A stretch of DNA of 64,000 bases from Candidatus Bathyarchaeota archaeon. Its GTDB lineage: Archaea; Thermoproteota; Bathyarchaeia; 40CM-2-53-6. A program made the position numbers and the translations under genes. Position 1 is the first letter of the stretch. The number at the start of each line of letters is the position of its first letter. The notes beneath the pieces are model-generated. The model made no database searches. It was not told the origin of the DNA and saw only the letters and a program-made list of their open reading frames with translations. The stretch spans positions 32,001 through 96,000 of the forward strand of contig CAVTBR010000002.1 of the NCBI GenBank assembly GCA_963733055.1, in the 5' to 3' direction. Positions 7,359-32,625 of this stretch are shown here, piece after piece.

Positions 7359-8472
7359 GTGAATTCACTGCTCCTCTTTGCTCCTTTCGTGATTGAACTT
7401 CCTCCCGAGGTGCGCAAAGCAATGGCGAAGCAAGTCATCCATCCTGATCTCGATGAAGCGTTCTTTGACCTCTACGACAGCGTAGTGCGTAAGACCAGTA
7501 AGATCTACGGGACTGCGAAATGACCTATTCATTATCCCAGGAGAAGGAATGGTCGCACTTGACGCAGCAGTCGCCAACCTAGTCGAGAAGGGAGACCGAG
7601 TTCTTTCCATCTCTTCGGGATTCTATGGTGATGGACTAAGAGAGTTTGCGGTGAACTATGGTGGCGACGCGACCCTATTGCGTAGCGAGGATGGCGATAT
7701 TGTCGAACCAGCCGATATCGAGAGGCAACTCGAAAAGGATCCACAGATCAAGGTTGCAACCTTTGTTCATGTCGAGACACCTTGCGGAACACTTGGCCCA
7801 TTGGCTGAGGTTGGGAAGATTTGTGATGACCATGGAGTCATCTTGATAGCCGACACCATAACATCCGTGGGCGGCGTCCCAGTGAACGCAGATCGGAACC
7901 ATGTCGATGTTGTCCTTGGGGCCAGCCAAAAGTGCTTCAGTGCACCACCCGGCCTAGCAATGATTTCCGTGAGCCCGAGGGCATGGGAAAAGATTGAGAG
8001 GCGAAAGGAGAAGGTCCCCTCATTCTATCTCGATCTTTTGCCCTGGAAGAATATGTGGCTTAAGAAACGCGAGTTCCCCTACACACAGTCTGTATCCGAT
8101 ATCTTCGCCCTCAACGCAGGTTTGGACCTCATTCTTAAGGAAGGATTGAATCGGGTTTATGCGAGGCATCGGAAGGTAGCCGATTTCGTGCGCGATTCTT
8201 GTCGAGACATTGGGCTTGAAATCTTCGCAAAACGGAGAGAAATCTCTTCCAAAACTGTGACGGCCGTTAAGGTGCCCGCGGGTATAGATGAGAAACAATT
8301 GAGAATGGTGATGGCAAAGCGTCACGGAGTCATCATATCCCACTCCTGGGGGAAGACCGCGGGCAAAGTTGTTCTTCTCGGTCACACCGGGTACAATGCC
8401 CAAGAGAAGAAGGCTCGGATCGCCATGAGCGCACTTTCAAAGTCTTTGAAAAGTCTAGGTTTCAAAAAGTAA
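7359..8472 (+). CDS. Class V aminotransferase (pyridoxamine:pyruvate aminotransferase-like), +1 frameshift near 7514
   Basis: GTG 7359 gives MNSLLLFAP...HPDLDEAFFDLY...IYGT, which joins RNDLFIIPGEGMVALDAA. HVETP and SQK (Schiff-base Lys) motifs present. Confidence 0.8.
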
Positions 8473-8562
8473 ATTCGCATTGTATGAGACTTGTTACGAC
8501 TGCCATTCAATTTCCGGTTTGCCGTTGGACGGCACGGGAGGATCGCGCGAAATGCGCCGAAT

Positions 8563-10254
8563 TTAGACAGGCGGCATTTCGGCGAAGCTTAGGGATAGGT
8601 CAATGCCCTGTTTCTTTCGTATGCCCCATGCGACTAAGTAGACTAGGATGCAGGCGAGGAAGATGCCGAAGACGAATTCTATCGAACTTCCAGTTGGAAC
8701 AGAGACGTATCCCAATGCAGGGCCTGCGACGAATATCCATCCTATGAATAGGTTCACGATTAGGGAAAGTACGCCCATGATCGCGAGAACCGAGACGCCT
8801 CCAACCTTGTACTTTGCGGCTGGCGAAGCTTCGAAGATTTGCTTGTTTCGGTAGGGGAACACGATGGCTGTTACGCTGATGAGTACGTATGCGATTTGAG
8901 TGGCTAGGCCTGCGGTGGAGAAGTAGCTTGTTAGCGCGGTGTAGTAGATTATGAGGTAGAGGAATATCTCGCAACCTATTGCGGAAATTACTAATGCTAC
9001 GAGCGGTGAACGCGTTTTCTGGGTTACGTAGGCGATCTTTTCCGGCAATACTCTATCCATCGCAGCCGCAAACATGATTCTTGTCGATGCAAAGTAAACA
9101 ATCAGGATTACTTGGAAAAGTCCGAACGTGAGGCCTACCAAGATTAGCGTCCACACTACCGGGCTACTACTCAGTGATGCCACGAAGGCCGGGTAGTAGG
9201 GATTGTAGAAGAATGCGAGGGGGTTGGTTGAAGGGTCGAAGTTGTAGTATAGCGTATAAAATGAGTCCAGAAATTGCAAGCCCACAACAGCTTCAAGCAG
9301 ATACCACAAGGCGAGAAGGAAGAGTGCGAACAGAAGGCTTGACCCAACCTGTATCCACACCTGCACCTTGAGGCTCTCGGCGCTCTTTATTTCCGATAGA
9401 TTGTAGATGCTCCAGAACGCGTATCCAAATGACACCCAGATTACGCCTAAGAGAGCCAACGTTCCCGGCCAACTGAATGCGGGAGTGGTAAGGTTGGCTG
9501 TTTGGATAATGTATTGGTAGTAACCGCCGGCACTTTGGACCGCGTTCGTTACAGTTTGGTTGCCCTGCGCGTGTACTAATGGCATCGTGAATGAGTTGAA
9601 GTTCTGAACAAACGCAGCGTGGGTCGTAGTCGCTAAAACCAAAAGAATCGTCGCGGCAGAGACAACCGATCCAGCGAACAGGATGTATTGCAGACGGACG
9701 TAGAACCGCATGCCCAGTGCAGCGATTACAAGGCCAAGCAGAATGACGACGGTCGTTATGGCAAAGTTCGCAGTATTGTACCCAAAGTTTGCGGCAAGGG
9801 TGGCCGCTAGATTCGCGAAGTAGGAGTTCGACATTCCGAGGAGAGCAAAGTATGGTTGAAAGCCGACCGAGGCTATGAGCATGCCCAAGAAACTTGCGAA
9901 ATACCACTGCCAGATTGTCCACGCTGAAAATGTTGATCCGAACCCTATGATTGGATGAAGTACCCGACTCTGCCAGACATAATCTCCTCCTGAACGAGGC
10001 ATCGCTGATGAGAGCATGGAGGTCGCCAAATAGAACGGAATGGCGATGATCGCCATGAGTAGGATGGCCAAGCCAACGTTTGCGCCCAAGAAACTGGATG
10101 AATAGGCTATGGAGTAAAGGGTCACCCAAGTGAAGGTGCAAAGGCCGATGGCCATGAAGTTGTAGATGAACGCCTGATGAGGCGCCATCTCACGGACTAA
10201 CCCGGAGGTCTTTCTAACGAAAATCTGTTTTGACGATGCCATTTGGAAGAGCAC
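8563..10254 (-). CDS. APC-family amino acid/amine permease
   Basis: IFVRKTSGLVRE and MPRSGGDY motifs, many TM helices. Confidence 0.9.
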   Translation of the reverse strand: MLFQMASSKQIFVRKTSGLVREMAPHQAFIYNFMAIGLCTFTWVTLYSIAYSSSFLGANVGLAILLMAIIAIPFYLATSMLSSAMPRSGGDYVWQSRVLHPIIGFGSTFSAWTIWQWYFASFLGMLIASVGFQPYFALLGMSNSYFANLAATLAANFGYNTANFAITTVVILLGLVIAALGMRFYVRLQYILFAGSVVSAATILLVLATTTHAAFVQNFNSFTMPLVHAQGNQTVTNAVQSAGGYYQYIIQTANLTTPAFSWPGTLALLGVIWVSFGYAFWSIYNLSEIKSAESLKVQVWIQVGSSLLFALFLLALWYLLEAVVGLQFLDSFYTLYYNFDPSTNPLAFFYNPYYPAFVASLSSSPVVWTLILVGLTFGLFQVILIVYFASTRIMFAAAMDRVLPEKIAYVTQKTRSPLVALVISAIGCEIFLYLIIYYTALTSYFSTAGLATQIAYVLISVTAIVFPYRNKQIFEASPAAKYKVGGVSVLAIMGVLSLIVNLFIGWIFVAGPALGYVSVPTGSSIEFVFGIFLACILVYLVAWGIRKKQGIDLSLSFAEMPPV

Positions 10255-10317
10255 GCAACGAAAGGATGGTAGTGACCCGGTTTGTATTTAAAACTGACCG
10301 TATTCTGGAAACGAAAC

Positions 10318-11349
10318 TCATGCGGAGATGAACTGATAGGATTTACAACCCTTCTCATCCAGGTTGACGAGGACGCCGCGAAGTATTCCTTCTCCGTACT
10401 CACTTCCCGGGTTTACGCAGACCGTGCGACCGATTTTCGCTACATTCTTGGATTCATGAATATGCCCATGCAAACCGAGCACAGGTTGTGACTTTTCGAT
10501 GGCAGCGCGAATCGCAGTTGACCCTGCCCCGAAGAAAACCAATCCGCCCCCGTCCATCATTGGTTTCGGAGGAAAGACGGAAGCGTCCAATTTCACACAT
10601 GTGTCCAAACCAGAGTCGACTGGTGGGCAGTGGAAGTTGAAGACTGAGTCCGCTGGATTGGTGAGCATTGAAATCTTCTTCTCAACTCTAGTCGCAATCT
10701 CTTCCTCAGTCAAGTCTCGTGGGCAGTTCCATGGTGTGATGTTCGCAAACCCCGCAGAAATCATCTCATGTTTCGAATCGAGCATGACAACTTTGTCTTC
10801 GGGTTGAACGATCTTCTTACTCTTCGCCAATTCTTCATCGACGAAAAGCTCGTCATCGTTACCGGTATTGACGTAAACGGGGCAGGTCGCGTTCGAATCG
10901 GCGTATTCAACCCATTCCCTCAATCTCGTTCGAGTGATATCCTCAAGTATCCTTTCAGATTCTTGCTTGTTCTGAGCGAGATTCTCCATCTCGCCTTTCG
11001 ACGCTACGTAAATATACGAACCGGTTCTTCGAACAATTTCCTCAAACCGGGCCAAATCCTCCTTGCTCTTCATGTCGTGCATTTGCTTCTGGAATTCAGC
11101 ATGATAGGACCCGTCAGCGTCTGCGATGACCGTGACGACGGCCTTGCCCGTAAGATCTCCGCCCATAACGATCACGTTCGCCTTGTAGAACTGACCGCCG
11201 CGGATGAACTTCTTCCATACACTATCGCTGCCATGCACATCGGAAGCGAAGAGAATTCGCGTGAAAGCCAAACCGAACACTACCGCACATCGAAACATTC
11301 GGCCGAATATAATTCTTGAACCATGAATTAATAAGCAAAATAACCGCAT
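10318..11349 (-). CDS. Icc-like metallophosphoesterase (true start probably about 25 codons downstream)
   Basis: SDVHG, GGD, GNDD and HGHIHE calcineurin-like motifs. Confidence 0.85.
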   Translation of the reverse strand: MRLFCLLIHGSRIIFGRMFRCAVVFGLAFTRILFASDVHGSDSVWKKFIRGGQFYKANVIVMGGDLTGKAVVTVIADADGSYHAEFQKQMHDMKSKEDLARFEEIVRRTGSYIYVASKGEMENLAQNKQESERILEDITRTRLREWVEYADSNATCPVYVNTGNDDELFVDEELAKSKKIVQPEDKVVMLDSKHEMISAGFANITPWNCPRDLTEEEIATRVEKKISMLTNPADSVFNFHCPPVDSGLDTCVKLDASVFPPKPMMDGGGLVFFGAGSTAIRAAIEKSQPVLGLHGHIHESKNVAKIGRTVCVNPGSEYGEGILRGVLVNLDEKGCKSYQFISA

Positions 11350-12644: not shown

Positions 12645-13648
12645 TTGAAGGTGGGCGTTAGGTTGCCAAATTCTGGTCCACTAGCCTCCGCAGAGGCAAT
12701 TCTGCGCGGTGCTGAACTCGCAGAGCAACTTGGCTACGACTCCGTGTGGGTTCACGACCACATCATCTGGGGCACTGAGCAGCATAGAGATCACCTGTCA
12801 TCAGGCTCCGCTGAGGCACTGAACTCATCGCAATTGCCAAACTTCTACGAATCACTTGCAACTTTAGCCACGATTGCGGGGCGGACTGATCGAGTGAAAC
12901 TAGGGGTCGCGGTAGTCATACTTCCGCTACGCAACCCTGTAGTCTTCGCGAAACAGACGTCGGTTATAGACGTACTCTCGGGTGGCAGACTGATGGTAGG
13001 AGTTGCACCCGGTGCGCCCAAGATTACTGAGAAAGAGTTCGAATCGATTGGGGTTGAGTACCATAAGCGAGGAAAAATCACGGACGACTACATTAGAGCA
13101 GTCAAGAATCTCTGGACCGAGCAGTTAGCAACGTACGAGGGTAGTTTCGTCTCGTTCAATAAAGTGCAGATGTTTCCTAAACCTCTCCAGAAACCACACC
13201 CCCCGATTCTAATCGCGGGCGGAGAACGAGGGCTGAGCGAGATCGCGATACAGCGAGTCGCTGAGCTAGGTAATGGATGGATCCCTGCGTATCTCACCGA
13301 GACTGAGCTTGAGCAAGGAACTAAACAGCTTGAGCGGAGGATGAAGGAGGTCGGGAGGGGGGATGAAAAGTTAATGGTTGGGCTTGAAATGTTTACGGGC
13401 ATCAGCCAATCAGAAGGCGAAGCCGAGAGGACCTACTCGGCTACGCTCATGAAAAACTTCAATTCTGCTGAGGAAGGGATGAAACGAAGCCTCGTAGGAT
13501 CGACTGGATCGATTGCGAAGAGACTCGACACGCGTACGAGAGAGTGGGACTGGATTTTGTTGAATTGAAGTTCATGTACTCCACCATTCAACAGTTCCAC
13601 GAGCTGATGACAAAATTTGCCAAAGATATACTTCCATCTTTCAAATAA
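12645..13648 (+). CDS. LLM-class (probably F420-dependent) oxidoreductase, frameshift near 13530
   Basis: WVHDH, LRNP and PKPLQKPHPP motifs. The C-terminus AYERVGLDFVELKF...DILPSFK* continues in another frame. Confidence 0.85.
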
Positions 13649-13680: not shown

Positions 13681-14250
13681 ATGGCGCGATTTCTAACCAG
13701 GGAACTTGGACGACGGACATGGCCTGACTTCGTGAGGGTTATGGAGAAGCACAATGGTGTGTGGGGTGGATGCTGGTGCGTCACCTTCCACTTCAAGCCC
13801 GGAGGGTCGATCCGAGGGGCTACGCCGCGCAGAGCATACAAGGAGAGGCTCGTTCGAGCGAACAAGTCCCACGCTGCCCTCGTCTATGACGGGGCGGATG
13901 TCGTTGGGTGGTGTCAGTTCGGGTCCCCTGGCGAGCTCCCGGGCCGAATGGGAGGGTTCCGCAAGTTGGGTGTGGCTCAGCCCGACTGGAGGATTACATG
14001 CTTTTTCGTCGACCGCAGCCGGAGAGGAGAGGGAGTAGCGGAGGCAGCGTTGGGGGGCGCTCTTCGAATGATCGCCGCCAGAGGAGGCGGGACGGTCGAC
14101 GGATATCCAATCGCAACCCGAGGGAAACCTTACTCGAGTTCATTCTTGTGGGGTGGAATTGAATCAATGTTCGCCGACGTCGGATTCCGCCAGCTTGGTC
14201 ATCTCGGCACAAGTAAGTTAGTAATGCGAAAGAAGGTTCGTGGCCGATGA
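13681..14250 (+). CDS. GNAT N-acetyltransferase
   Basis: GCWC, VGWCQ, ITCFFV and RRGEGVA acetyl-CoA motif. Confidence 0.85.
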   Translation: MARFLTRELGRRTWPDFVRVMEKHNGVWGGCWCVTFHFKPGGSIRGATPRRAYKERLVRANKSHAALVYDGADVVGWCQFGSPGELPGRMGGFRKLGVAQPDWRITCFFVDRSRRGEGVAEAALGGALRMIAARGGGTVDGYPIATRGKPYSSSFLWGGIESMFADVGFRQLGHLGTSKLVMRKKVRGR

Positions 14251-14347: not shown

Positions 14348-14408
14348 CATCTGAGGGTAACGGTACCTTCTCGTCAGCCCGAAAGGGCTGTTACTTTTCG
14401 TCTGCTGA
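14348..14408 (+). repeat. Left target duplication plus left TIR of element A
   Basis: CATCTGAG|GGTAACGGTACCTTCTCGTCAGCCCGAAAGGGCTGTTACTTTTCGTCTGC. Confidence 0.9.
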
Positions 14409-14534
14409 CTCAGCCAATGTTAACGCATAGTCTACGGTTGACCGCTGATGTGGACTCCGCCATTACGTTTGGTTGTTGGTCTTTATGGAAGTTGCTTTAC
14501 GAATTAGGGCAACGATCCGTGGTTTACAACATTA

Positions 14535-14903
14535 TCATTGACGGTAACAAATGCAAGCACTTACATCATAATTCGGATGACTCATCACAACGCAAAAGCA
14601 ACTTCCGTTCCACGTTCCTCCGCAACCTACGCCTTCGAAACCTCCCATCTCTACGGGGCCTATCTCCATGAGAGGTTTCAGAGTTGCCGCTAATTCTTTA
14701 CTCATTGGTACCTCGGTCTGATCTCTCCCCTTCCTCCCCGTTCGGAAGACCCAACCGGAGGGGTTCTTACCCACCATGTCCAGAAAATCATTCACCGCCT
14801 TTGTGTAATGCGTGTTTGCCTCCGTCGTTTTATCGCGTAACCTGTCAAGTTCTGAGATGGAGTTCTTGAGTGCATCTATTTTCTCACGCTTCTCATCAGT
14901 CAT
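14535..14903 (-). CDS. Cargo: hypothetical protein with Cys-rich C-terminus
   Basis: 122-aa ORF with a helical N-terminus and five Cys in the last 29 residues. Confidence 0.65.
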   Translation of the reverse strand: MTDEKREKIDALKNSISELDRLRDKTTEANTHYTKAVNDFLDMVGKNPSGWVFRTGRKGRDQTEVPMSKELAATLKPLMEIGPVEMGGFEGVGCGGTWNGSCFCVVMSHPNYDVSACICYRQ

Positions 14904-15046
14904 TTCAACATCGCCTGCGAGAAAACTGATCCAAGTAGGTTTAACCTTAGAAAAGGTATTTAACTTTTTACAGGTTCGGTAGCGCTTTTTCGTCCGCCAT
15001 TTTTGCTGTAGAGCGGTTTACTCTTGGATTTCAAGAGAAAAATAGC

Positions 15047-15286
15047 ATGCCCACCGTTTGCGTCCTCATTGTAGTTTTTCGTCTCGCATGGGTAGTGTTA
15101 AAGGTGCAAGGGGGTGATACCAAGAAAAACAGACCTCGATTGAAACCTAGACAAGTCTTGTACGCTTTAGTCGGTGTGGGCGCTTTTTATTTTGCCTACA
15201 CGAACTATACTTCTGGCAATGCTCAGGTTGCGGGTTTCCTTGCTCTGATAGGACTTGTTTCGTTCTATCTGGGGTTCAAGCGATGA
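15047..15286 (+). CDS. Cargo: small membrane protein
   Basis: Hydrophobic segments; ATGA overlap with the next gene. Confidence 0.55.
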   Translation: MPTVCVLIVVFRLAWVVLKVQGGDTKKNRPRLKPRQVLYALVGVGAFYFAYTNYTSGNAQVAGFLALIGLVSFYLGFKR

Positions 15287-15720
15287 GCCACGTCAAACGT
15301 TATGCGCCAATTGGCATCATTCTGATTCTGGTATGTTACAACATCTATCTCGCAATTGTAAGCGATCCTGCCACGAGAGCAACCTACTTTACAACAATTG
15401 TTGTTCTAGCTATCTACCTCGCTGACCAGATCACGAAACTGCCTTCTTCAGTCGAATCGGGGAAAATGGACGAAGTGCCAACAGCGGTAGTCGATCTGGT
15501 TAGTGAAGCTCAAGAATGGGCCAAAGGGCGGTTGACTGGCATAGACATAAAACGATGGGGCCAACCTACAGTGAAAGATAATGGAAAGGGAGACATTGAG
15601 GTCTCAGGAACAATAGATCGCACTTATCCACAGGAAAGGTATACCTATCTTTACCACAAGAAAGACGGCCACATACAAACGGACTCGTATGTTGATTGGT
15701 TCAGCACATACTCGTTCTGA
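15283..15720 (+). CDS. Cargo: 2-TM membrane protein with soluble C-terminal domain
   Basis: 145-aa ORF convergent on the transposase. Confidence 0.65.
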   Translation: MSHVKRYAPIGIILILVCYNIYLAIVSDPATRATYFTTIVVLAIYLADQITKLPSSVESGKMDEVPTAVVDLVSEAQEWAKGRLTGIDIKRWGQPTVKDNGKGDIEVSGTIDRTYPQERYTYLYHKKDGHIQTDSYVDWFSTYSF

Positions 15721-15734
15721 TTTTCGTTGAGTCA

Positions 15735-16901
15735 TTAAATGGGATTGCTTCTTCGCGTATTCTGTTTCCGTGAAGCATTTTGAATTAACGTCAACCACTT
15801 ATTCTCTCCCTGAACCTCAATGCCCGCTAAGTCGGCTGGCGTTTTCCCGTTCAAACCCTCATGTGGTCGTATGAAGTTGTGGTAGATTTGCATCCCCGCT
15901 AAGATTGGAGTATCGGTTCTTTCAAGCGTCCTCATTACCCGTTCTCGGTCACGTAGTTCTCCGTTCATGCGCTCCATTTTGTTATTGTGAACTGTTCCAT
16001 CCATGCGAATGTCTCGAATATGCTCAGTTCGAGTTTCTAGTCGTTGTGTGTAGAACTCTTTCTCGTATGCCTCGTGAAAGTTTGGTGCGCCGTCAGTGAT
16101 GAGCGTCTTAGGATTCTTCTCTGCGATTTCCTTACCTTTCTGGAATAGCGGGCGTAGATCAGCCGTGAACTTTGTGTCGGCAACCTCTTGGGCTATCCAG
16201 AATCTGGTCTGATCGTCCATAAGAGCGTAGAGGTACTTCATGTTCCCTTTGACCTTGAGGAATAGTTCGTCAGCTCTCCACGTGTCACTGACTTGCGGTG
16301 TGATCTTGTCTAGGTACGTCTCCACCAGTTCGGTGTAGCGTTTAATCCAATAGAACACGGTCTTATGGCTAACTTGAACGCCAAGCAACCGCAGCGATCT
16401 AGCCGTATTCCGCAGGCTCTCCCCTGAGAAGTAGAGTTGCATGGCAGTTGTGATTCCTTGTGGGCTGTGCTTCATTCGCTCAAATCCAAAGTTCACCGTG
16501 AACCATTTTCGGCAAGCCTTGCAGAAGAATTTCTGAATGTCACCGTATTTGTTGTGACGTAACCCCTCTTTCTTGATATTCTCAGATTTACAATAGATAC
16601 AACCGTGAATCTCGGTTACCGGTTCAATAACTCTCGCTTGAACATGCTCCCTGATTTTTTGGGATAGTTCGACCGCCCACACATGCTTGCAGCGAAGAAT
16701 TTCGTGGAGTTCGCTCACGCGGTAGTGGTAGTCCAAGCAATTACAAATCCAAGAACCATTCTCGCGGCGAACCACATCATACATACCGTGTCCGTTCTGA
16801 GAAGCAACCTTGTAGGTTCGCTCGTCCATGCGCTGAATCTGGTTCGGCTTCTCAGCAATCATTCGCCCCTTTTCCTCACGGGAGAGAACGGTTCTTTGCA
16901 T
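15735..16901 (-). CDS. IS6/IS240-like DDE transposase with N-terminal SWIM zinc finger, zinc ribbon and HTH
   Basis: CNC..CKH (SWIM), CIYC..CKAC, WRADE, LITDG, NNKMERMNG and YHNFIRPH motifs. Confidence 0.92.
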   Translation of the reverse strand: MQRTVLSREEKGRMIAEKPNQIQRMDERTYKVASQNGHGMYDVVRRENGSWICNCLDYHYRVSELHEILRCKHVWAVELSQKIREHVQARVIEPVTEIHGCIYCKSENIKKEGLRHNKYGDIQKFFCKACRKWFTVNFGFERMKHSPQGITTAMQLYFSGESLRNTARSLRLLGVQVSHKTVFYWIKRYTELVETYLDKITPQVSDTWRADELFLKVKGNMKYLYALMDDQTRFWIAQEVADTKFTADLRPLFQKGKEIAEKNPKTLITDGAPNFHEAYEKEFYTQRLETRTEHIRDIRMDGTVHNNKMERMNGELRDRERVMRTLERTDTPILAGMQIYHNFIRPHEGLNGKTPADLAGIEVQGENKWLTLIQNASRKQNTRRSNPI

Positions 16902-16910
16902 CGCAAATCA

Positions 16911-16968
16911 CTACGACAATATTGTAATGCGCAAGACAAATATAGGCCTTACGACAATATTGTCGTAG
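16911..16968. promoter_or_regulatory. Putative operator pair in the divergent promoter
   Basis: Perfect 18-bp palindrome TACGACAATATTGTCGTA at 16950-16967, and a 14-bp copy TACGACAATATTGT at 16912-16925. Confidence 0.7.
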
Positions 16969-16975
16969 GTATCTG

Positions 16976-17170
16976 TTGGTTAGAAAAGAGGTACTTGGAA
17001 CATCCGAACGAGAAATACTCGAAGCCTACCTGAAAGGTGAACGACTCAAGAACTACACCGTACTATTACATCGCATACGTAAGATCGGATTGAAGGCAAT
17101 CATCCAAGGATGCCGACGCGACTTAGTTCTTTTGGAGAAACTTTTGCAAATTGAATCGGGAAGAGAATGA
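16976..17170 (+). CDS. Small helical protein divergent from the transposase, candidate regulator
   Basis: 64-aa ORF sharing a 74-bp intergenic region with the palindromes. Confidence 0.65.
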   Translation: MVRKEVLGTSEREILEAYLKGERLKNYTVLLHRIRKIGLKAIIQGCRRDLVLLEKLLQIESGRE

Positions 17171-17198
17171 TTTCTCGGTCAGGTACGGGATAAGCGGC

Positions 17199-17939
17199 TC
17201 ACTTAGGTTGAAAGGCTTTCAGTGCTTGATGCGACGAAATGTCAAGCCTAAGTCTCATATGTGGTTGCTCAGGTAATTTCTCTCCAAAGAATTGATAATC
17301 GAGATCAATGCAATTTCTCTTGAGAGTATCTCGTAGCGTACTGAGCAACTCTGGGTTTTTAATGTCCGTATTTAGAAGGAGAGTTGCCTCGTCTTTTCCC
17401 TTGTAGGCAACCCAGATATTCATAACCTCACTCACGCCCTTAACCAGCGTTATGAGTTGAGGTGGACTTCTAAAGGAAACATTTCCCGTAGTTCCATCAA
17501 CTGTACTCTCTAGCTTCGACCAAGCGGGATGAAATTCAATTTCTCCCGTATCAATCCATAGTTTTGCACCCGCATTGGCTATTGTGCTATTGATCGCTGT
17601 AACTCTGAACTGTTGATAGAGAAAGTGCATCTTCCCTTTCGCAGGAAGTACTTGTGTCAGCGTGAATACATCAATTCCCATACTATGGGTGGTATTATCA
17701 TTCCAAACGGTTGACATGGGCTGCGAAAGTTCAACAAGAAGTGTCGGTGCTTTACCGATGAACGCCATGATTTCGGGTTTGAAGGTCCATAGAACTAAAC
17801 CACCAAGCCCCACAGTAGCTTCCGCGATCACTACTGTCCAGTATTCATTCCACAAAATATGTTCCTCGTAAGACACTACGCCCACGAAAACTACAACCGC
17901 TGCTATCGCGGATAGCCCTAGCCAAACTCTTCTGCGCAT
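17199..17939 (-). CDS. Cargo: membrane-anchored hypothetical protein
   Basis: Two N-terminal TM helices followed by a soluble domain. Confidence 0.7.
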   Translation of the reverse strand: MRRRVWLGLSAIAAVVVFVGVVSYEEHILWNEYWTVVIAEATVGLGGLVLWTFKPEIMAFIGKAPTLLVELSQPMSTVWNDNTTHSMGIDVFTLTQVLPAKGKMHFLYQQFRVTAINSTIANAGAKLWIDTGEIEFHPAWSKLESTVDGTTGNVSFRSPPQLITLVKGVSEVMNIWVAYKGKDEATLLLNTDIKNPELLSTLRDTLKRNCIDLDYQFFGEKLPEQPHMRLRLDISSHQALKAFQPK

Positions 17940-17992
17940 GAATTACTGTAAACCTCCAAGTAGCGTATTTAACAAGAGACCCTGACAGAACG

Positions 17993-18053
17993 CTAGCTGA
18001 CGAACGGTAACAGCCTGCTGCGGCTGACGAGAAGGTAACGTTACCCATCTGAG
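17993..18053 (-). repeat. Right TIR plus target duplication of element A
   Basis: Reverse complement GGTAACGTTACCTTCTCGTCAGCCGCAGCAGGCTGTTACCGTTCGTCAGC, followed on the plus strand by CATCTGAG. Confidence 0.9.
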
Positions 18054-18079
18054 GGTAACGCGTCGTTGTCGTTTGGTCG

Positions 18080-18322
18080 CTAGGGCTGTTTACTTTCGTT
18101 TGGTGGTTTTCTTCGCAAAACCATTACTGACAAGATGGCCGCTATCAACAGTAGCAAAAAGCTGCTGCCTCCGGCAATTCCAGTAATTGTTTCGTAAGGT
18201 TGAGGGTACACCGCGGAGGGTATACCGAGCGAGTTTCTAACCGACACTCCCACGGAGACGAGTACTACGACGAGAAAGCACATACCGAGGCATATTGCCG
18301 CTGTGACCCGTTCTGTGTCCAA
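18080..18322 (-). CDS. Cargo of element B: 2-TM small protein
   Basis: Starts 1 nt after the relic transposase stop and ends inside the TIR. Confidence 0.6.
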   Translation of the reverse strand: MDTERVTAAICLGMCFLVVVLVSVGVSVRNSLGIPSAVYPQPYETITGIAGGSSFLLLLIAAILSVMVLRRKPPNESKQP

Positions 18323-18550: not shown

Positions 18551-20389
18551 TTAGGGGAGGTTGAGGTAGCTGAGTTTTTCTTTGGTTGGGACTCCTTGTT
18601 CGTCCCATCCTCTCATTTCGTAGTAGGGGCCTAGCATTTTGCTCACGTCACACGTTTGTCCCTTGGCCGTTCCTTCTGGCATTGGTTCTAGGAACCGGTC
18701 AGGAATTACGTCATCTTTTCTCGTGTAACCTTCCCTCAGATTAAACAGTCTCTCAATGTTCACGATTCTCTCACCCACCTTAACCATCTCGGCATAACTC
18801 TGCTTCATGCCCGTAGCATCACGGATGCACCGCTCAATAACTGGGGGGCTGAAGCCGAAGTCTAAGCAGAAATCGCAGAATACAGCGGAATCAATGGGTG
18901 CCGCGGTTGAATCCTGGAAATCTATTACCCATTTTACTTTGCTGCGGTCCTCCGAGAATCGATCAACTTTCTCCGGCATCCCGAAGAGTTCCACCGCTAT
19001 CGTCCAGCCGTCATTGTGATCGGCGCCGCGAGATGCGGTTGCATAGTTCAACCCGATGCCCTTCGCGCCCCTAGGGTCGTAGCCCGGCATCTCAAGCCCC
19101 TTGACATGCATCGCGAACTTCCAAGCGTCGCTACCCAATTTCTCTGCGGCAACCTTGACTCCATCCGCAAGCGTATTTCCTATCCCTTCCCTTCGTGCGA
19201 TTTTCTCCACTAGCCATAGTAGGGCGTCATCGTTTCCGAAGTTCAACTTCACACCCTCAGTTTGTTGGTCGGTTATGATGCCCCGTTCGTAGCATTCCAT
19301 GGCGAATCCCGTGACCACGCCGGTGGAAATCGTGTCCATGCCGTATTGATCGCATAGAAGGTTGGCGTGGGCTATGGTTTCGAATGAGGGGATCCCGCAG
19401 TTCGCTCCCAACGCGAAAATGTTCTCATGCTCTGGCCTGTCGGTTCTGACGCCCGCGTGAGGGCCATCTTTTATGTCGATCCACTTTGAGCAAAGAACCC
19501 TGCAACCCCAGCAATGGACGAAGCCTCGGTTCGGGTAATGGGATTTTATGTAGGTGGCGTCGATCTTGTCAACCATATCGAAGTAGCCGCTCTGGAAGTT
19601 TCGGGTCGGCATAAGCCCCATCTCGTTGACGAATGAAACCGACCCCGTGGTCCCATCCTCCTTGAACGCCTTCACAACATCGTTGTTGTCCACGATCTTT
19701 CCTATCCAAAGTAATGTCTCGCGCCAATGATCCCTGTCCAAAAATGTCTCGGCCTTTCCCGATCCTTCGACTGCAAAGGCTTTCAGATTCTTTGAACCCA
19801 TTACGGCTCCCGGCCCACATCTGGCGGCGGCCGCGTGTTTGTCGCTCATTATCGCCGCGATCTTGACCAAGTGCTCGCCTGCGGGCCCGATCGAAGCAAC
19901 TCTAATCGTCGGCTTCGAACCTAGCTCGGTGCTGACAGCAGCTTCGGTGTCGTGGGTGGTTTTGCCCCACAGGTGAGACGCGTCCCTGAGCTCAAACTGA
20001 CCATTGTGAAGGTACCCGTAGACTTTCTTCTCGGATTTTCCTTGGATTATTACGCCATCATAGCCCGCGAATTTGATGTTCGGCCCAAGGTGCCCTCCAC
20101 AGAAACCGACCGAGATCGTGCCGGTTGAGGGAGATTTCATTCCAACCGTATATTTCCCGGTTAACGGAACGTTGGTGCCCGCGAGCGGGCCCGTCATGAA
20201 AATTAATCTATTATCAGGACCAAGTGGGTCTGCGTGTGGCGGAAGTTCGTCGTACAGGATTTTTGCGATGAACCCCCTGCCGCCCATCCAAGTCTCAGCG
20301 AAATCATTGTCAATTACTTTCTCTGACGTCTTGCCGGTTGTGAGGTCGACCCGAAGAAGCTTGCCCACGTAACCTTTGTAATCAGTCAA
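18551..20389 (-). CDS. aor: Aldehyde:ferredoxin oxidoreductase family (tungstopterin)
   Basis: LRVDLT, GGRG, IGPAGE, GAVMGSKNLK, CWGCRVLC, GMDTIS and YYEMRGWD motifs. Confidence 0.92.
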   Translation of the reverse strand: MTDYKGYVGKLLRVDLTTGKTSEKVIDNDFAETWMGGRGFIAKILYDELPPHADPLGPDNRLIFMTGPLAGTNVPLTGKYTVGMKSPSTGTISVGFCGGHLGPNIKFAGYDGVIIQGKSEKKVYGYLHNGQFELRDASHLWGKTTHDTEAAVSTELGSKPTIRVASIGPAGEHLVKIAAIMSDKHAAAARCGPGAVMGSKNLKAFAVEGSGKAETFLDRDHWRETLLWIGKIVDNNDVVKAFKEDGTTGSVSFVNEMGLMPTRNFQSGYFDMVDKIDATYIKSHYPNRGFVHCWGCRVLCSKWIDIKDGPHAGVRTDRPEHENIFALGANCGIPSFETIAHANLLCDQYGMDTISTGVVTGFAMECYERGIITDQQTEGVKLNFGNDDALLWLVEKIARREGIGNTLADGVKVAAEKLGSDAWKFAMHVKGLEMPGYDPRGAKGIGLNYATASRGADHNDGWTIAVELFGMPEKVDRFSEDRSKVKWVIDFQDSTAAPIDSAVFCDFCLDFGFSPPVIERCIRDATGMKQSYAEMVKVGERIVNIERLFNLREGYTRKDDVIPDRFLEPMPEGTAKGQTCDVSKMLGPYYEMRGWDEQGVPTKEKLSYLNLP

Positions 20390-29280: not shown

Positions 29281-29567
29281 AATCGAACTTCCTCAAACAT
29301 GACCCCTCGAGAAAGCCGCCACTCCGATTCTTTCACGTATGCACATTCTCTATAATTACATCGGCCGCATCTGGCCTCAGAAGAAGGACACCCGCAGAAG
29401 CGGCAGGAATCAAGTTTCAGGGCCACAACAAGTGGTTGCCTCTGAATCAGAACGCCAACGCAAAGAAAGGGTTTGAGGAACAGCGTTGTTCCGACCTAAC
29501 CGCTGTTACGGATTTCTAGTGAACTCTTATTAGGATTAGAAACCGTTGGTTGCACGTGGGCTAATTC

Positions 29568-30371
29568 ATGGGTCGCGGCCCAGTTGGGGTCATCTTAGTT
29601 GTATTCGTGTTCGTGTCTCTTCTTCTCTATCAAGCTCATCCCGTTCACGCCTCAGGTTTCGTTCAGGAGAAGGAGGGTACCTCATTTACGTTCGGTGTTT
29701 CTGTGCCTGTAATGATTTCTTTCTCATCGTCTGTTACTAAGGGAGATGTGGTGGTTGTGGCTCTTGAATGGGATAACAGTCGTCCTCTGCTTTCAGTTAG
29801 TGATTCGTTAGGTTCCGCCTTTGCTTCCACCTCGGAAGCTCACAATACTGCGCTTCGCCATTCTACTCAAGTCTATTATGCGACACTTACTTCTGGCGGG
29901 TCGGATACGGTGACGGTGACTGAGGGAACAGGTCTGCTTCAGTATAATGACATATTCATCTTTGAGGTTTCAGGGGTGATGACGGCGGGAGCCGCATCAG
30001 GTCAAGGTCAGGATTCTTCTGGCACTAGTTTTGCGTTTGCCACGAGTCCAGTCGCGTTCCAGAGCGGAGCGTTTCTGGTTGGAGTGGTCACGAGCGGGTG
30101 TACTTGCAGTATTGTGAATGGACCGAGTTTCACTTTGATTACTGCTGGTCAGGGTGGAGCAGTGGAGTATGCGGACCCCGTTTCTTCACCCACTACATTC
30201 CCAATGACAACTACCATTGATAATGGAGATTGGGTGGAAAGCGGGTTAGCTCTTCAACCAGCACCAGCACCACCGATTCCAGAATATCCGTTCGGCCTCG
30301 CGATGCTAGCAATCCTAATGATAATCATGTACGGGCTAATCAAACGCACAACCGCAAAGAAGCCCAACTAG
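29568..30371 (+). CDS. Secreted surface protein with PEF-CTERM-like (PEYP) sorting signal
   Basis: Signal peptide; C-terminal PIPEYP, TM helix and basic tail. Confidence 0.8.
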   Translation: MGRGPVGVILVVFVFVSLLLYQAHPVHASGFVQEKEGTSFTFGVSVPVMISFSSSVTKGDVVVVALEWDNSRPLLSVSDSLGSAFASTSEAHNTALRHSTQVYYATLTSGGSDTVTVTEGTGLLQYNDIFIFEVSGVMTAGAASGQGQDSSGTSFAFATSPVAFQSGAFLVGVVTSGCTCSIVNGPSFTLITAGQGGAVEYADPVSSPTTFPMTTTIDNGDWVESGLALQPAPAPPIPEYPFGLAMLAILMIIMYGLIKRTTAKKPN

Positions 30372-30389
30372 ATCGCATCGACCGAGAGT

Positions 30390-30560
30390 AACGCCCGATT
30401 TCCTTTTTCAAATATGCAAATCTTCCACAACTACGTACGACTACACCAAGCATTAAACGGTAAAAGCCCGGCTGAGGTCGTGGGAAACGGGATTCGAGGT
30501 GAGAATGAATGGTTGACTCTGATTCAGAACGCCAGCAAAAGGCGTGAAGAGAAAGCATAA
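30390..30560 (+). pseudogene. Transposase 3' relic (D)
   Basis: MQIFHNYVRLHQALNGKSPAEVVGNGIRGENEWLTLIQNASKRREEKA*. Confidence 0.9.
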
Positions 30561-31248
30561 GAATCAACCCAAGGGTTGTCCACCTTTGGGCCTGGTGGGT
30601 TTGGCTTCAAGGCGACTGACCGCGTTATTGTTAGCTCTTGTCGCATTCGCCCTTTTCATTAATGTGCCTCTTCCTACTTTCGCAATTGCGTTGAGCCCAA
30701 ATCAGTCCTGCACCGTCACTCTGTCAACATCTGGGGATATAACGGTCGTAGCAGGTTCATCTGGTTCCAATACCATAACCATAACTCTCTCCCAAGGTTC
30801 CTGTGGTGGCCCTCTTGACTTAGCAGGGTGCACCCCGCCGCCGCCGAGCGGAGCGTCATGTGGTTTCGTTCCATCCTCTGGGAACCCTACCTTTTCGACC
30901 ATCCTCACCATAAGCACTTCACCCTCAACTCCACCGGGAACTTACTCTCTTGACATTTCACTCAGTGTCGCTCAGTGCAATTGTGAGCTTACCCAGTTAG
31001 ATGGTACTAATGCTCCATTCAATCTAATCGTCCAACCAGCTACTACTGCGACAACTACTATCCCCGAATATCCACTCGGCCTGCCAATTCTCGCAATCTT
31101 CATGATACTCGGATATGCCGTAATCAAACGCAGAACACATCTTGGTAATGTGAAGGCGTTGAAAGGAAAACACAGGGGACTCCTGAAGGAACCGTGGTCA
31201 AAACTTGAGGAGAAAGCAGACCGCTACGTCCGAGAAGGAAAGCGCTGA
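30544..31248 (+). CDS. Secreted Ser/Thr/Cys-rich protein with PEYP sorting signal, fused to a probable antitoxin C-terminal remnant
   Basis: TIPEYP plus TM plus IKRR, followed by an extra helical tail that abuts the PIN gene. Confidence 0.7.
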   Translation: MKRKHKNQPKGCPPLGLVGLASRRLTALLLALVAFALFINVPLPTFAIALSPNQSCTVTLSTSGDITVVAGSSGSNTITITLSQGSCGGPLDLAGCTPPPPSGASCGFVPSSGNPTFSTILTISTSPSTPPGTYSLDISLSVAQCNCELTQLDGTNAPFNLIVQPATTATTTIPEYPLGLPILAIFMILGYAVIKRRTHLGNVKALKGKHRGLLKEPWSKLEEKADRYVREGKR

Positions 31249-31688
31249 AACAATACCCAACAGAGCGCTGATAGACGCTGATGTATTCATTTCATACCTC
31301 ACCTCCGATAAACTGTCCGACCATGCGGAACGGCTTGTGGACAAAGCGGACGCGTCACAGGTGAAACTCTACGCCGCTTCGGAGATGTATGACGGATATC
31401 ATCACCGCTTTGCGTACGCAAGACGTGAAATTAGAGAAGGCGATTCAAGTTCTAGCGGATATCCGTAGGATACCACATGAAACCCTGCCCACCACTCCAG
31501 AAATTGTGGAGCAAGCGATGTCGCTATACTCAAAATTCGGGGGCCCGAAGAGACTGCATTACTTTGATGCATTTCATGTAACAACCGCGAAGAACTTTGA
31601 ACTTCCCCTAATCACGAGCGATAGGTTCATCCTACAAAACTCCCGCAGCCTCGAGATTTCAGCTATCGACCTTCGCAAGCTTAATTGA
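31205..31688 (+). pseudogene. PIN-domain (VapC-like) toxin, frameshift near 31394
   Basis: LIDADVF ... EMYD/DIITAL ... LHYFDAFH ... LITSD motifs across two frames. Confidence 0.75.
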
Positions 31689-31730
31689 ACTCTAAGAAAG
31701 ATAACGTTACTTCCTACTTCTACTTCTAAT

Positions 31731-31826
31731 TCACCGAGTGAAGCTGCGGGTATCAAAGTTGAGGGAGACAACAACTGGCTTACCTTGATTCAGAATGCAA
31801 GTCGAAAAGACGGAAATAGCAACTAG
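31731..31826 (+). pseudogene. Transposase 3' relic (C)
   Basis: SPSEAAGIKVEGDNNWLTLIQNASRKDGNSN*. Confidence 0.88.
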
Positions 31827-31879
31827 CTAGTTTCGATTCGTGAAAACAAGGGGAACCCGTAAGACCGGAATGCAGCATA

Positions 31880-32098
31880 TTGGATGGTAGGTGGAATATG
31901 ATGACAGAAGTGGGCGGTGTGGACAAGTGGCGTTCGACATACGCCAAGCTCGTAGTGCTTGAGTTTGTCCTGAGCGTGATTTTTATTCCACTCGGACACA
32001 TTCTGGGGAACCCATATTTCCGCGGTGTGGGTGTTGGCTTACTGATTGCTTGGGTTACGGGTGCCTTAGCATATTTTGTCGTGCGGAAGAAGGCTTGA
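31880..32098 (+). CDS. Cargo: small 2-TM protein
   Basis: Two hydrophobic helices and a basic tail. Confidence 0.65.
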   Translation: MDGRWNMMTEVGGVDKWRSTYAKLVVLEFVLSVIFIPLGHILGNPYFRGVGVGLLIAWVTGALAYFVVRKKA

Positions 32099-32101
32099 AA
32101 G

Positions 32102-32302
32102 ATGAAGTTAGGCCCATACGGTTACAGACATCTCCTTGCGAGGACGCTTGCAATTGTCGCTATAGTGAATGCGATCATCTTGATTCGTATGTGGTACTTC
32201 TACCTGACGTGGCAAATAGTCTTCGGAATAACAGTGATGGAGTTGCTTGCAATGTTTCTAAATGTGCAATTTTGGTGGAGTCATAGGGATAAAATCTCCT
32301 GA
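32102..32302 (+). CDS. Cargo: small 2-TM protein
   Basis: 3 nt after the previous gene; two hydrophobic helices. Confidence 0.6.
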   Translation: MKLGPYGYRHLLARTLAIVAIVNAIILIRMWYFYLTWQIVFGITVMELLAMFLNVQFWWSHRDKIS

Positions 32303-32333
32303 CGGACACATACATCTATCTTGGTGATGAATT

Positions 32334-32589
32334 GTGTTCTCGCGACTCTACGACCTGCGAAAGCCCACTCTACGAAATTTTATTGTAAGGTATTGTGTCG
32401 GATTGACTTTTGTTGCAGGCGTATCCGCGCTCGATTGTGTACGCGAATCAAGGATGGACTTGGCCTACGGAGATTAACGGAGTTACCTTGGGTCTGCCTG
32501 AGTTTCTAGCCGTCATAGTACTCGTTACACTACCCGTTGCCATATGTATTGACGTGTGGAGAAGCTGGAATCCAACCAAACGAAAGTAA
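32334..32589 (+). CDS. Probable third 2-TM cargo gene with +1 indel near 32430
   Basis: MFSRLYDL..VGLTFVAGVSA / SIVYANQGW..FLAVIVLVTLPVAIC..PTKRK*; the stop lies inside the TIR. Confidence 0.45.
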
Positions 32590-32625
32590 ACAGTCCCAAG
32601 CACCAAACGACAACGACGCGTTACC
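32575..32625 (-). repeat. B-type TIR
   Basis: Reverse complement GGTAACGCGTCGTTGTCGTTTGGTGCTTGGGACTGTTTACTTTCGTTTGGT. Confidence 0.9.

Follow-up and report, generated by a model that had tools for sequence, protein, structure and literature searches.

What places a cargo-carrying transposon exactly 8 bp from the end of another member of its own family? The question is raised by a locus in a genome of Candidatus Bathyarchaeota archaeon (GenBank assembly GCA_963733055.1; 3 contigs, 2.88 Mb; here G000), within a stretch of 64,000 nucleotides (contig CAVTBR010000002.1, positions 32,001 to 96,000 of the forward strand) that we refer to as the window. An intact-looking, autonomous 3,690-bp element, here called the focal element or B, is bounded by an exact 8-bp duplication, CATCTGAG, whose two copies delimit it and therefore place it at 14356-18045. 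The right-hand copy is at the same time the spacer to a sister element, C, which is older, truncated, and adjoins a host aldehyde:ferredoxin oxidoreductase gene (Table 1). We are fairly confident that the focal element belongs to a large archaeal family of IS6-related unit transposons with end-homing insertion, and that it arrived beside the old sister C.

An earlier reading of this DNA, made from its letters alone (the original prediction), had proposed a unit of about 3.69 kb with inverted repeats of about 50 bp and an exact duplication, holding one SWIM/zinc-ribbon DDE transposase, a divergent small gene and four other open reading frames (ORFs), with the end of a second element abutting it, and all of this was recovered. 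The inverted-repeat arms (14355-14406 and 17995-18046) are 52 nt long and 83% complementary, CATCTGAG stands on both sides, the gene content is as described, and C begins at 18054, straight after the right copy of CATCTGAG. The first 23 nt of the end (one N) occur nowhere in the window but at these two ends, with 0 expected from shuffles. The reconstructed empty target had also been described as a pseudo-palindrome resembling abutted ends; its right half is indeed a true element end, but the likeness of its left half, GGTACC, to an end is not conserved, because the orthologous flanks of two related genomes read GGTAAT and AATAAG.

The ends follow a two-module plan, which we read from an alignment of eight ends in G000. 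Module 1 consists of a common 7-nt tip, GGTAACG, about nine bases, and a 7-mer that is CGTCAGC in the focal element, CGGTTGA in a second array of this genome, and CGTTTGG in sister C. Module 2, some 20-30 nt further in, is a second (C)TGTTAC-N4-CGxxxxx copy. The left inverted repeat (IRL) of the focal element reads tip GGTAACG plus GTACCTTCT-CGTCAGC, then CTGTTAC-TTTT-CGTCTGC. In the wider clade, sampled through 75 related loci (850 kb, from records whose titles include Bathyarchaeia, Nitrososphaeria and Atabeyarchaeia), the tip is GGTTCTG(T), differing from the tip of the genus of G000 at three positions, and the CGxxxxAT motif varies by lineage; the tip GGTTCTGT contains the cTGTt motif of IS6. 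The "long bipartite" terminal inverted repeats (TIRs) of the original prediction were correctly called, and two-module ends prove to be a family trait (29 of 29 wider-clade elements inspected). The modules, direct copies of a site of about 16-20 bp with a lineage-specific CGxxxxx, are probably transposase-binding sites.

Junctions, arrays and orthologous landing pads

An end profile run over G000 found 22 ends, eight of which are paired in four junctions of exactly 8 bp, against about 4e-5 junctions expected for 22 random ends by our own arithmetic. Besides the junction of B and C, the genome holds a second array, host flank-TTACGTAA-E1 (2,844 bp)-TTACGTAA-E2 (2,786 bp)-TTACGTAA-E3, and a third tip-to-tip junction with the spacer TTGGAAAA. 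Four full-length transposase genes are present (100, 77, 75 and 60% identity), two of them side by side with a fragment on another contig, together with 15 partial matches, 14 of which cover just the C-terminal ~50-110 residues. Solitary insertions at ordinary sites also occur, with 8-bp duplications TAAGAAAG, CCAGTATG and ATCTAGGA, and include two members of G000 that lack a transposase and retain both ends and the 8-bp repeats (585 bp at CCAGTATG, 625 bp at ATCTAGGA). Relics often consist of a left end and the final 50-100 transposase codons, and at all three loci of G000 with 8-bp junctions one side is a relic made up of a left end, short cargo and a C-terminal fragment.

Across 401 genomes of the class, a scan for CGTTACC-N(2-14)-GGTAACG matched 33, among them 12 of the 23 genomes of the genus (G000 included). 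Among the matches listed, 30 of the 32 genus junctions have N=8 and the other two N=7; outside the genus there were 21 matches, with N = 2, 3, 5, 6, 9, 11 or 12, and N=8 in none of the 21. A degenerate scan of the wider clade (ACAGnnCC-N(2-14)-GGnnCTGT) gave nine junctions, eight at 8 bp and one at 7, and its backwards control gave no junction in the 75 loci. An exact scan for the wider-clade tip in 301 genomes of the phylum returned a single match, with an 8-bp spacer, which is too few to count. Spacers other than those of the TTACGTAA type have no common consensus (CATCTGAG, TTGGAAAA, TGTAAGAA, AGAGAAAA, GTTGATTG, CACTGAAC, CTTTCGGC, CTAACCTT, GACGTTAG); those of the wider-clade junctions include AACTTAAC, CTTGCGGT and TTTTTCAG. 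Assembly artefact was set aside: many separately assembled genomes show such junctions, some of them on contigs >0.5 Mb.

Two further patterns were seen in these scans. Six genomes outside the genus (G194, G155, G297, G134, G046 and G254) have facing tips with a 3-bp spacer, CGTTACC-NNN-GGTAACG, which could belong to a different element type or be an unrelated palindrome. Two arrays carry their 8-mer both forward and reverse-complemented: L072 (G233:C18; junctions 2524, 6294 and 11268; TGTAAGAA / TTCTTACA) and L075 (G272:C13; junctions 10386 and 14695; TTACGACA / TGTCGTAA). Both-strand 8-mers within one array are a signature of inverted array segments.

We then delimited 23 intervals bounded by facing end pairs, in an array-biased sample that comprised loci fetched around junctions and the whole of G000. 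The 8-mers flanking them are exact direct repeats in 15 intervals, differ by one base in three, are inverted in one and do not match in four, two of which are one base off register. Eleven intervals hold a near-full transposase gene (2,644-4,966 bp), four hold partial transposase genes, and eight hold none (502-1,325 bp), some of these carrying an ORF. The 75 related loci were unselected, and 38 of them passed a filter for TIRs and duplication; two lack GG tips and look spurious, and the remaining 36 have GG-tipped inverted ends, exact 8-bp duplications and lengths of 2,169-6,554 bp, so that cargo is the rule in the family. What the original prediction had expected of homologues is hereby borne out, namely paired TIRs with 8-bp duplications (36 of the 75 loci), insertion that is non-random relative to other ends (N=8 at 30 of the 32 listed genus and 8 of the 9 wider-clade junctions), tandem arrays of cargo modules (one 8-mer is common to all junctions of an array), and a unit-transposon lineage with variable cargo (elements of 2.2-6.5 kb).

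Two landing pads are orthologous between species and hold different elements in each, with the spacer being each species' own variant of the 8-mer. At the focal locus, the host monooxygenase and oxidoreductase genes are collinear in G325 (83% and 87% identity), where the flank and CAATTGAG are followed by a transposase-less element of 1,222 bp, a second CAATTGAG and a relic; the transposase fragment of this relic borders the oxidoreductase gene, an arrangement also seen in the window. In G233, CAACTGAG and then a further, different element come after the same flank (...taataaggtaat). The orthologous 8-mer is accordingly read as CATCTGAG in G000, CAACTGAG in G233 and CAATTGAG in G325, with three different elements beside it, and the duplicated variant is each genome's own. 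G233 and G325 lack the GNAT gene beside this pad (Table 1) in their orthologous intergenic region; a copy with ~80% DNA identity lies elsewhere in G325 and one with 78% in G242, and the region represents a gene gain or loss adjoining the pad, without recognisable element ends.

At the second pad, the TTACGTAA locus, seven other genomes have an alignable host flank, the alignment stopping exactly at the 8-mer. The end that adjoins the flank was determined for G000 and five other genomes, and all six ends differ. The local variant, TTACGTAA, TTACGTCA or TTACGCCA, recurs at the junctions of that genome, with single-base exceptions in G278 and G257 (one each). The array of G335 has five TTACGTAA copies, and this genome includes one IRL-IRL junction. 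Two 2,644-bp elements of G335 (L063, G335:C4:826001-846000; 7793-10436 and 15457-18100) lie inverted and bracket two others; they are 99.9% identical over 2,673 nt, and therefore activity has been recent and orientation is not fixed. Either a second insertion or a recent intramolecular replicative event could have produced the pair. Also in the G335 array is the element most closely related to the focal one (83% transposase identity; 3,671 bp; the same CGTCTGC end motif, different cargo), that is, at the TTACGTAA locus of another species. This places the lineage at sites with unlike 8-mers, between which it has evidently moved.

Proposed insertion mechanism and competing explanations

Comparison of these loci indicates a strong preference of the family for the 8 bp just outside a resident tip, whether live or relic. 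Ordinary as well as end-adjacent targets are used, with relics serving as targets, and insertion, as read from the flanking repeats, duplicates 8 bp. A newcomer that enters the 8 bp outside a resident tip re-creates the 8-mer on both its sides, and repeated insertions thereby extend a chain whose junctions all consist of tip, 8 bp and tip around one shared 8-mer. The focal element probably arrived in this way, via the tip-adjacent 8 bp of the truncated sister C. We infer that the conserved tip of the resident element would set the position of the 8-bp-staggered strand transfer exactly at the boundary, either through recognition by the incoming complex or through transposase bound there, that the internal modules would give each lineage its own end specificity, and that the small protein would regulate the two divergent promoters. 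Movement may be replicative, as in IS6: the inverted 99.9% pair and the inverted 8-mers in two arrays are what points to this, and both agree with the product of intramolecular replicative transposition as given in PMC7986276.

As for what directs insertion, we see roughly even chances that it is active end-homing, in which the transposase, possibly already on the resident tip, takes as its target the 8 bp just beyond any family tip, dead relics included, and old ends are heritable landing pads that persist across speciation and accrete independent cargo. The pattern might instead have arisen by survival, with random insertion and persistence only of copies in or beside dead elements. The arrays do lie in intergenic DNA beside relics, solitary insertions exist at ordinary sites, and purifying selection against genic insertions is general. 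Survival would, however, allow insertions anywhere in or near a relic, whereas the junctions listed fall at exactly 8 bp in 30 of 32 and 8 of 9 cases, the rest at 7, and the same 8-mer is present at each junction within an array; base-pair precision is therefore the footprint of insertion chemistry, not of survival, and we consider such an origin quite unlikely. It is likewise very unlikely that arrays form without end recognition, through a preference for certain 8-mers or palindromes such as TTACGTAA. This spacer is a perfect palindrome, forms a 22-bp palindrome with the tips, recurs in several genomes, and is regenerated by each insertion, but the TTACGTAA-type junctions examined are all at one orthologous locus, and the other spacers have no consensus in the genus or the wider clade, the adjacent tip being the sole common feature.

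With their inverted arms and an 8-bp spacer that stays the same throughout an array, the junctions resemble the core sites of tyrosine recombinases; lox and FRT have inverted arms around an 8-bp overlap. One could therefore picture a conservative, site-specific cassette exchange in which elements enter as circles, and for IS26 a conservative mode that targets a resident IS is known (PMC4196232). The enzyme of the elements is, however, a DDE transposase, with no tyrosine or serine recombinase present, and solitary copies are flanked by 8-bp direct repeats where the surrounding DNA has no arm. The same lineage is found at CATCTGAG (focal element) and TTACGTAA (G335), which a requirement for overlap identity would forbid, and at the outermost copy of an array the 8-mer adjoins plain host DNA, all of which makes cassette exchange extremely unlikely. 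We give equally little credence to tandem duplication and divergence of one ancestral element in place of repeated insertion: array neighbours in G000 do point the same way, with transposases that are 70-77% identical, but their cargo is unrelated and their end motifs differ, the elements occupying an orthologous pad change from species to species, the 8-mer is identical within a genome despite the diverged ends adjoining it and differs between genomes, and in one array a 99.9% identical inverted pair lies beside 70% relatives.

Several points weigh against end-homing by an IS6-related family. An empty allele (flank-8-mer-sister without insert) was not found at the focal locus, which is present in five of the 22 other genomes of the genus, both informative ones being occupied. 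No transposition event was observed: the public reads included one DNA run with 12% of the sampled words and no listed RNA run, and three runs yielded only short, low-depth contigs, with neither joints nor an empty-site allele. The sample of delimited intervals is biased towards arrays, the related genomes are non-independent samples, and survival bias might add to the pattern, insertions beside junk being harmless. The focal element is the sole copy in G000, and its two ends mismatch at 9 of 52 positions. The best NCBIfam match of its transposase, IS6 (NF033587), scores 105.2 bits and does not reach the cut-off of 125, and the catalytic half of the AlphaFold model is unreliable (predicted local distance difference test, pLDDT, <50 at residues 200-345). 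Transposase identity, moreover, tracks the end-motif class poorly, which bears on the view of the modules as binding sites: E1 and E2 both carry CGGTTGA, yet are 71.5% identical to each other and each 74-76% identical to the focal transposase.

Transposase and relation to known systems

The focal transposase matches Pfam DDE_Tnp_IS240 (E 1.1e-14, residues 206-342), and its second NCBIfam match is IS1 (53 bits). Its closest named relatives on plasmid records are IS6-family transposases (25-29% identity over residues ~135-370 by tblastn). The domain order is SWIM, zinc ribbon, a helical helix-turn-helix (HTH) region and DDE, and the SWIM-type CxCx15CxH (C53, C55, C71, H73), the zinc ribbon (C101, C104, C127, C130) and the DDE residues (D211, D270, E310, plus R317) are conserved at >=97% in 118 close homologues, and D211, D270, E310 and R317 are invariant in 57-118 homologues; Pfam SWIM PF04434 was found in some homologues. 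A large protein collection contains >5,000 homologues at E <= 0.001, of which the named ones are annotated only as 'DDE-type integrase/transposase/recombinase' and come from Bathyarchaeia. The AlphaFold model (57 close homologues) has a mean pLDDT of 58.7; Foldseek with this model gave no meaningful match, and phmmer of the transposase against PDB gave nothing at E <= 1.

Reviews of IS6 describe GG tips with G at position 7, a cTGTt motif, TIRs of 15-20 bp, and a single passenger-carrying member, ISDsp3 (PMC7986276, PMC6807381). The focal family has in common with IS6 the HTH and DDE, a K/R seven residues past the E, GG tips with G7 (GGTAACG, with CTGTTAC in module 2), and the 8-bp duplication (CATCTGAG twice in the focal element, exact at 36 of the 75 related loci). 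The nearest IS6/IS26 branches are the long zinc-finger clades h and i (PMC7986276) or VII-VIII (PMC6807381), and an N-terminal zinc-finger extension is shared with the clostridial long members; archaeal and long zinc-finger members have been argued to be split from IS6/IS26 (PMC6807381). Unlike IS6, the family has an extra SWIM-type domain and a conserved small partner gene, ends of 50-60 bp with two internal repeats versus 15-20 bp, and a size of 2.2-6.5 kb with cargo versus 0.7-1.8 kb, and its hosts are archaeal (Bathyarchaeia, Nitrososphaeria); the focal element itself has 52-nt ends, 3,690 bp and five non-transposase ORFs. Membership of IS6 is therefore partial: the chemistry, duplication length and tip fit, whereas the score, TIRs, size, cargo and extra domains do not.

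Other systems share single traits with the family. ISDsp3 (Dehalococcoides sp. BAV1) likewise has one IS6-type transposase and a passenger within one end pair (a 'tIS'; PMC7986276), but it is described as single-copy with one hypothetical gene, as against a whole family with variable, multi-gene cargo. The targeted conservative mode of IS26 also takes a resident copy as target and builds arrays of cargo segments; this mode yields neither an additional IS nor a target duplication, works in one orientation only, and depends on transposase supplied by the two copies together (PMC4196232). The focal family differs in forming complete two-ended units with 8 bp duplicated per junction (the 8-mer stands on both sides of units), in using relic targets, and in occurring in both orientations, inverted neighbours included. 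IS30, with its targeting of inverted repeats, and IS911 likewise enter an ordinary site or their own inverted repeat and form junctions of abutted ends, but these are unrelated families with copy-out-paste-in transposition, and IS30 junctions have a 2-bp spacer, are IRL-IRR only (IRR, right inverted repeat), and are unstable and reactive (PMC9333248). Junctions of the focal family, whose transposase is IS6-like, have 8 bp, lie between diverged elements or relics, include at least one IRL-IRL case (in G335), and persist across species. The 502-1,325-bp members without transposase can be likened to mobile insertion cassettes or miniature inverted-repeat transposable elements; they are derivatives within the family, whereas the focal element is autonomous. 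Integron- or lox-like systems do not fit, as the elements contain no recombinase and the junction 8-mers differ between loci, and aloposons, which have tRNA-site integration and giant genes (PMC8813620), were rejected as relatives.

No description of the family or its arrays was found in the literature searched, a scope that ended short of ISfinder and the supplements of PMC6563490 and PMC11529989. In the accessible text of a 2026 survey of archaeal insertion sequences the terms Bathyarchae-, SWIM, tandem and passenger are all missing (PMC13343696), and that of a 2019 survey of thaumarchaeal mobile elements gives passenger-carrying DNA transposons as undetected in archaea (PMC6563490). The family is widespread in archaea, and its members regularly bear a cargo load of 1-5 kb in which restriction-modification genes are frequent. 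In its choice of target it turns transposon target immunity around, newcomers being drawn to resident ends with base-pair precision, and this offers a simple, testable rule for the assembly of archaeal gene arrays, possibly defence islands, on pads conserved between species. If true, this would be a DDE-transposase route to archaeal gene-cassette arrays or islands, functionally parallel to integrons and opposite to the target immunity of Tn7, Mu and Tn3, in which pads would accumulate modules including restriction-modification and other defence genes. If the mechanism were confirmed, the two-module ends, with their conserved tip and swappable specificity motif, and the exact tip-adjacent placement could be of interest for targeted DNA insertion.

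Small partner gene, cargo and setting

Sister elements have just two genes in common with the focal element, the transposase and the small divergent gene, and the same two alone are shared by B, E1, E2 and the G335 elements. The 64-aa small protein is 58-64% identical across three sister elements and is predicted to form three helices (model pLDDT 84.6). It had no Pfam match at E <= 10, no PDB sequence match better than E 0.5, and no Foldseek match of its structure at E <= 0.001. An AT-rich stretch between the two genes is flanked by the repeat TACGACAATATTGT (16912) and by TACGACAATATTGTCGTA (16950), a perfect palindrome of 18 bp (a pattern scan of the control region gave 2 matches versus 0.03 expected), and E1 and E2 have paired palindromes of their own at the equivalent position. 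This interval may be a divergent promoter region controlled by a DNA-binding regulator, and the small protein is probably the regulator acting on the paired palindromes, as its position and the palindromes suggest.

In the family as a whole the core consists of a transposase of 380-390 aa and a divergently transcribed three-helix protein of ~60 aa. Cargo is placed on either side of this core, inside the ends, and varies among relatives. The four extra ORFs that the original prediction had called cargo are present in the focal element, but all are orphans without a family match and stand as putative genes; they look like small membrane proteins. The cargo ORFs of B and of its sisters E1 and E2 had no Pfam, NCBIfam or PADLOC match. 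For the 246-aa ORF there was one homologue among 5.8 billion proteins (64% identity, 75% coverage), and among 59 genomes of the family the 145-aa ORF had one partial match, in a genome of the genus (64% identity over residues 2-56), and the 122-aa ORF no convincing match.

A scan of cargo in 35 delimited elements covered 95 of the 132 ORFs of >=90 aa, with 37 transposase ORFs or pieces left out. Twenty ORFs had Pfam matches at E <= 1e-5, and 16 of these, in 12 of the 35 elements, have restriction-modification or defence-type domains, among them N6_N4 and N6 methylases, Eco57I/MmeI-type enzymes, BsaWI and Mrr nucleases, GmrSD with HNH, type I S and R parts, and HEPN. All 12 elements fall in the wider clade; in the seven genus-type elements the only matches were to a zinc-ribbon protein, a glyoxalase and a protein resembling glycoside hydrolases. 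One 6,554-bp member (L105, 1201-7754), with GGTTCTG tips, the duplication GTTCTCCA and a gene for a 995-aa Eco57I/MmeI-type restriction-methylase, is on a record titled Atabeyarchaeia-1 chromosome, and the family therefore reaches an Asgard archaeon. Another, of 3,629 bp (L120, 3902-7530), carries a full type II pair, a BsaWI-like endonuclease and an N4/N6 methylase, and has a sister tip 8 bp past its right end.

Table 1. Features of the focal element and its surroundings, in window positions.
Feature	Position	Strand	Basis or remark
Host luciferase-like monooxygenase gene	12645-13568		Family match
Host GNAT acetyltransferase gene	13681-14250		Family match
Target duplication, left copy, CATCTGAG	14348-14355	.	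Direct reading
Left end (IRL), 52 nt, two modules	14356-14407	+	Inverted-repeat search, end profile
Weak end-like stretch GTTAACG...CGGTTGA...CGTTTGG, inside the left end	14419-14475	+	nhmmer E 0.02-0.4
Putative cargo ORF, 122 aa, orphan	14535-14903	-	ORF list
Putative cargo ORF, 79 aa, hydrophobic segments (read from sequence)	15047-15286	+	ORF list
Putative cargo ORF, 145 aa, hydrophobic N-terminal half (read from sequence)	15283-15720	+	ORF list
Transposase, 388 aa	15735-16901	-	Pfam DDE_Tnp_IS240
Putative divergent control region	16902-16975	.	Repeat and palindrome
Conserved divergent small gene, 64 aa	16976-17170	+	Kept in sister elements
Putative cargo ORF, 246 aa, hydrophobic N-terminus (read from sequence)	17199-17939	-	ORF list
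Right end (IRR), 52 nt, two-module plan as IRL	17994-18045	-	Inverted-repeat search, end profile
Target duplication, right copy, CATCTGAG, spacer to sister C	18046-18053	.	Direct reading; fits CGTTACC-N8-GGTAACG
Sister C left end, tip GGTAACG, modules with CGTTTGG	18054-18105	+	End profile
Sister C transposase relic, residues 327-382 only, 66% identity	18330-18497	-	Homology to focal transposase
Host aldehyde:ferredoxin oxidoreductase gene	18551-20389	-	Pfam AFOR_N and AFOR_C

The weak end-like stretch is possibly a relic of another family member, for which no partner end or duplication was found within the focal element. No tRNA genes, as candidate integration targets, are present in the window between 8000 and 36000. 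A second relic cluster lies in the window at 29306-32625, where C-terminal fragments of the transposase (29306-29468, 30405-30545 and 31731-31808, all on the + strand), spaced ~1.1-1.3 kb apart, are followed by a left end at 32625 (- strand) that is near-identical to the end of sister C at 18054.

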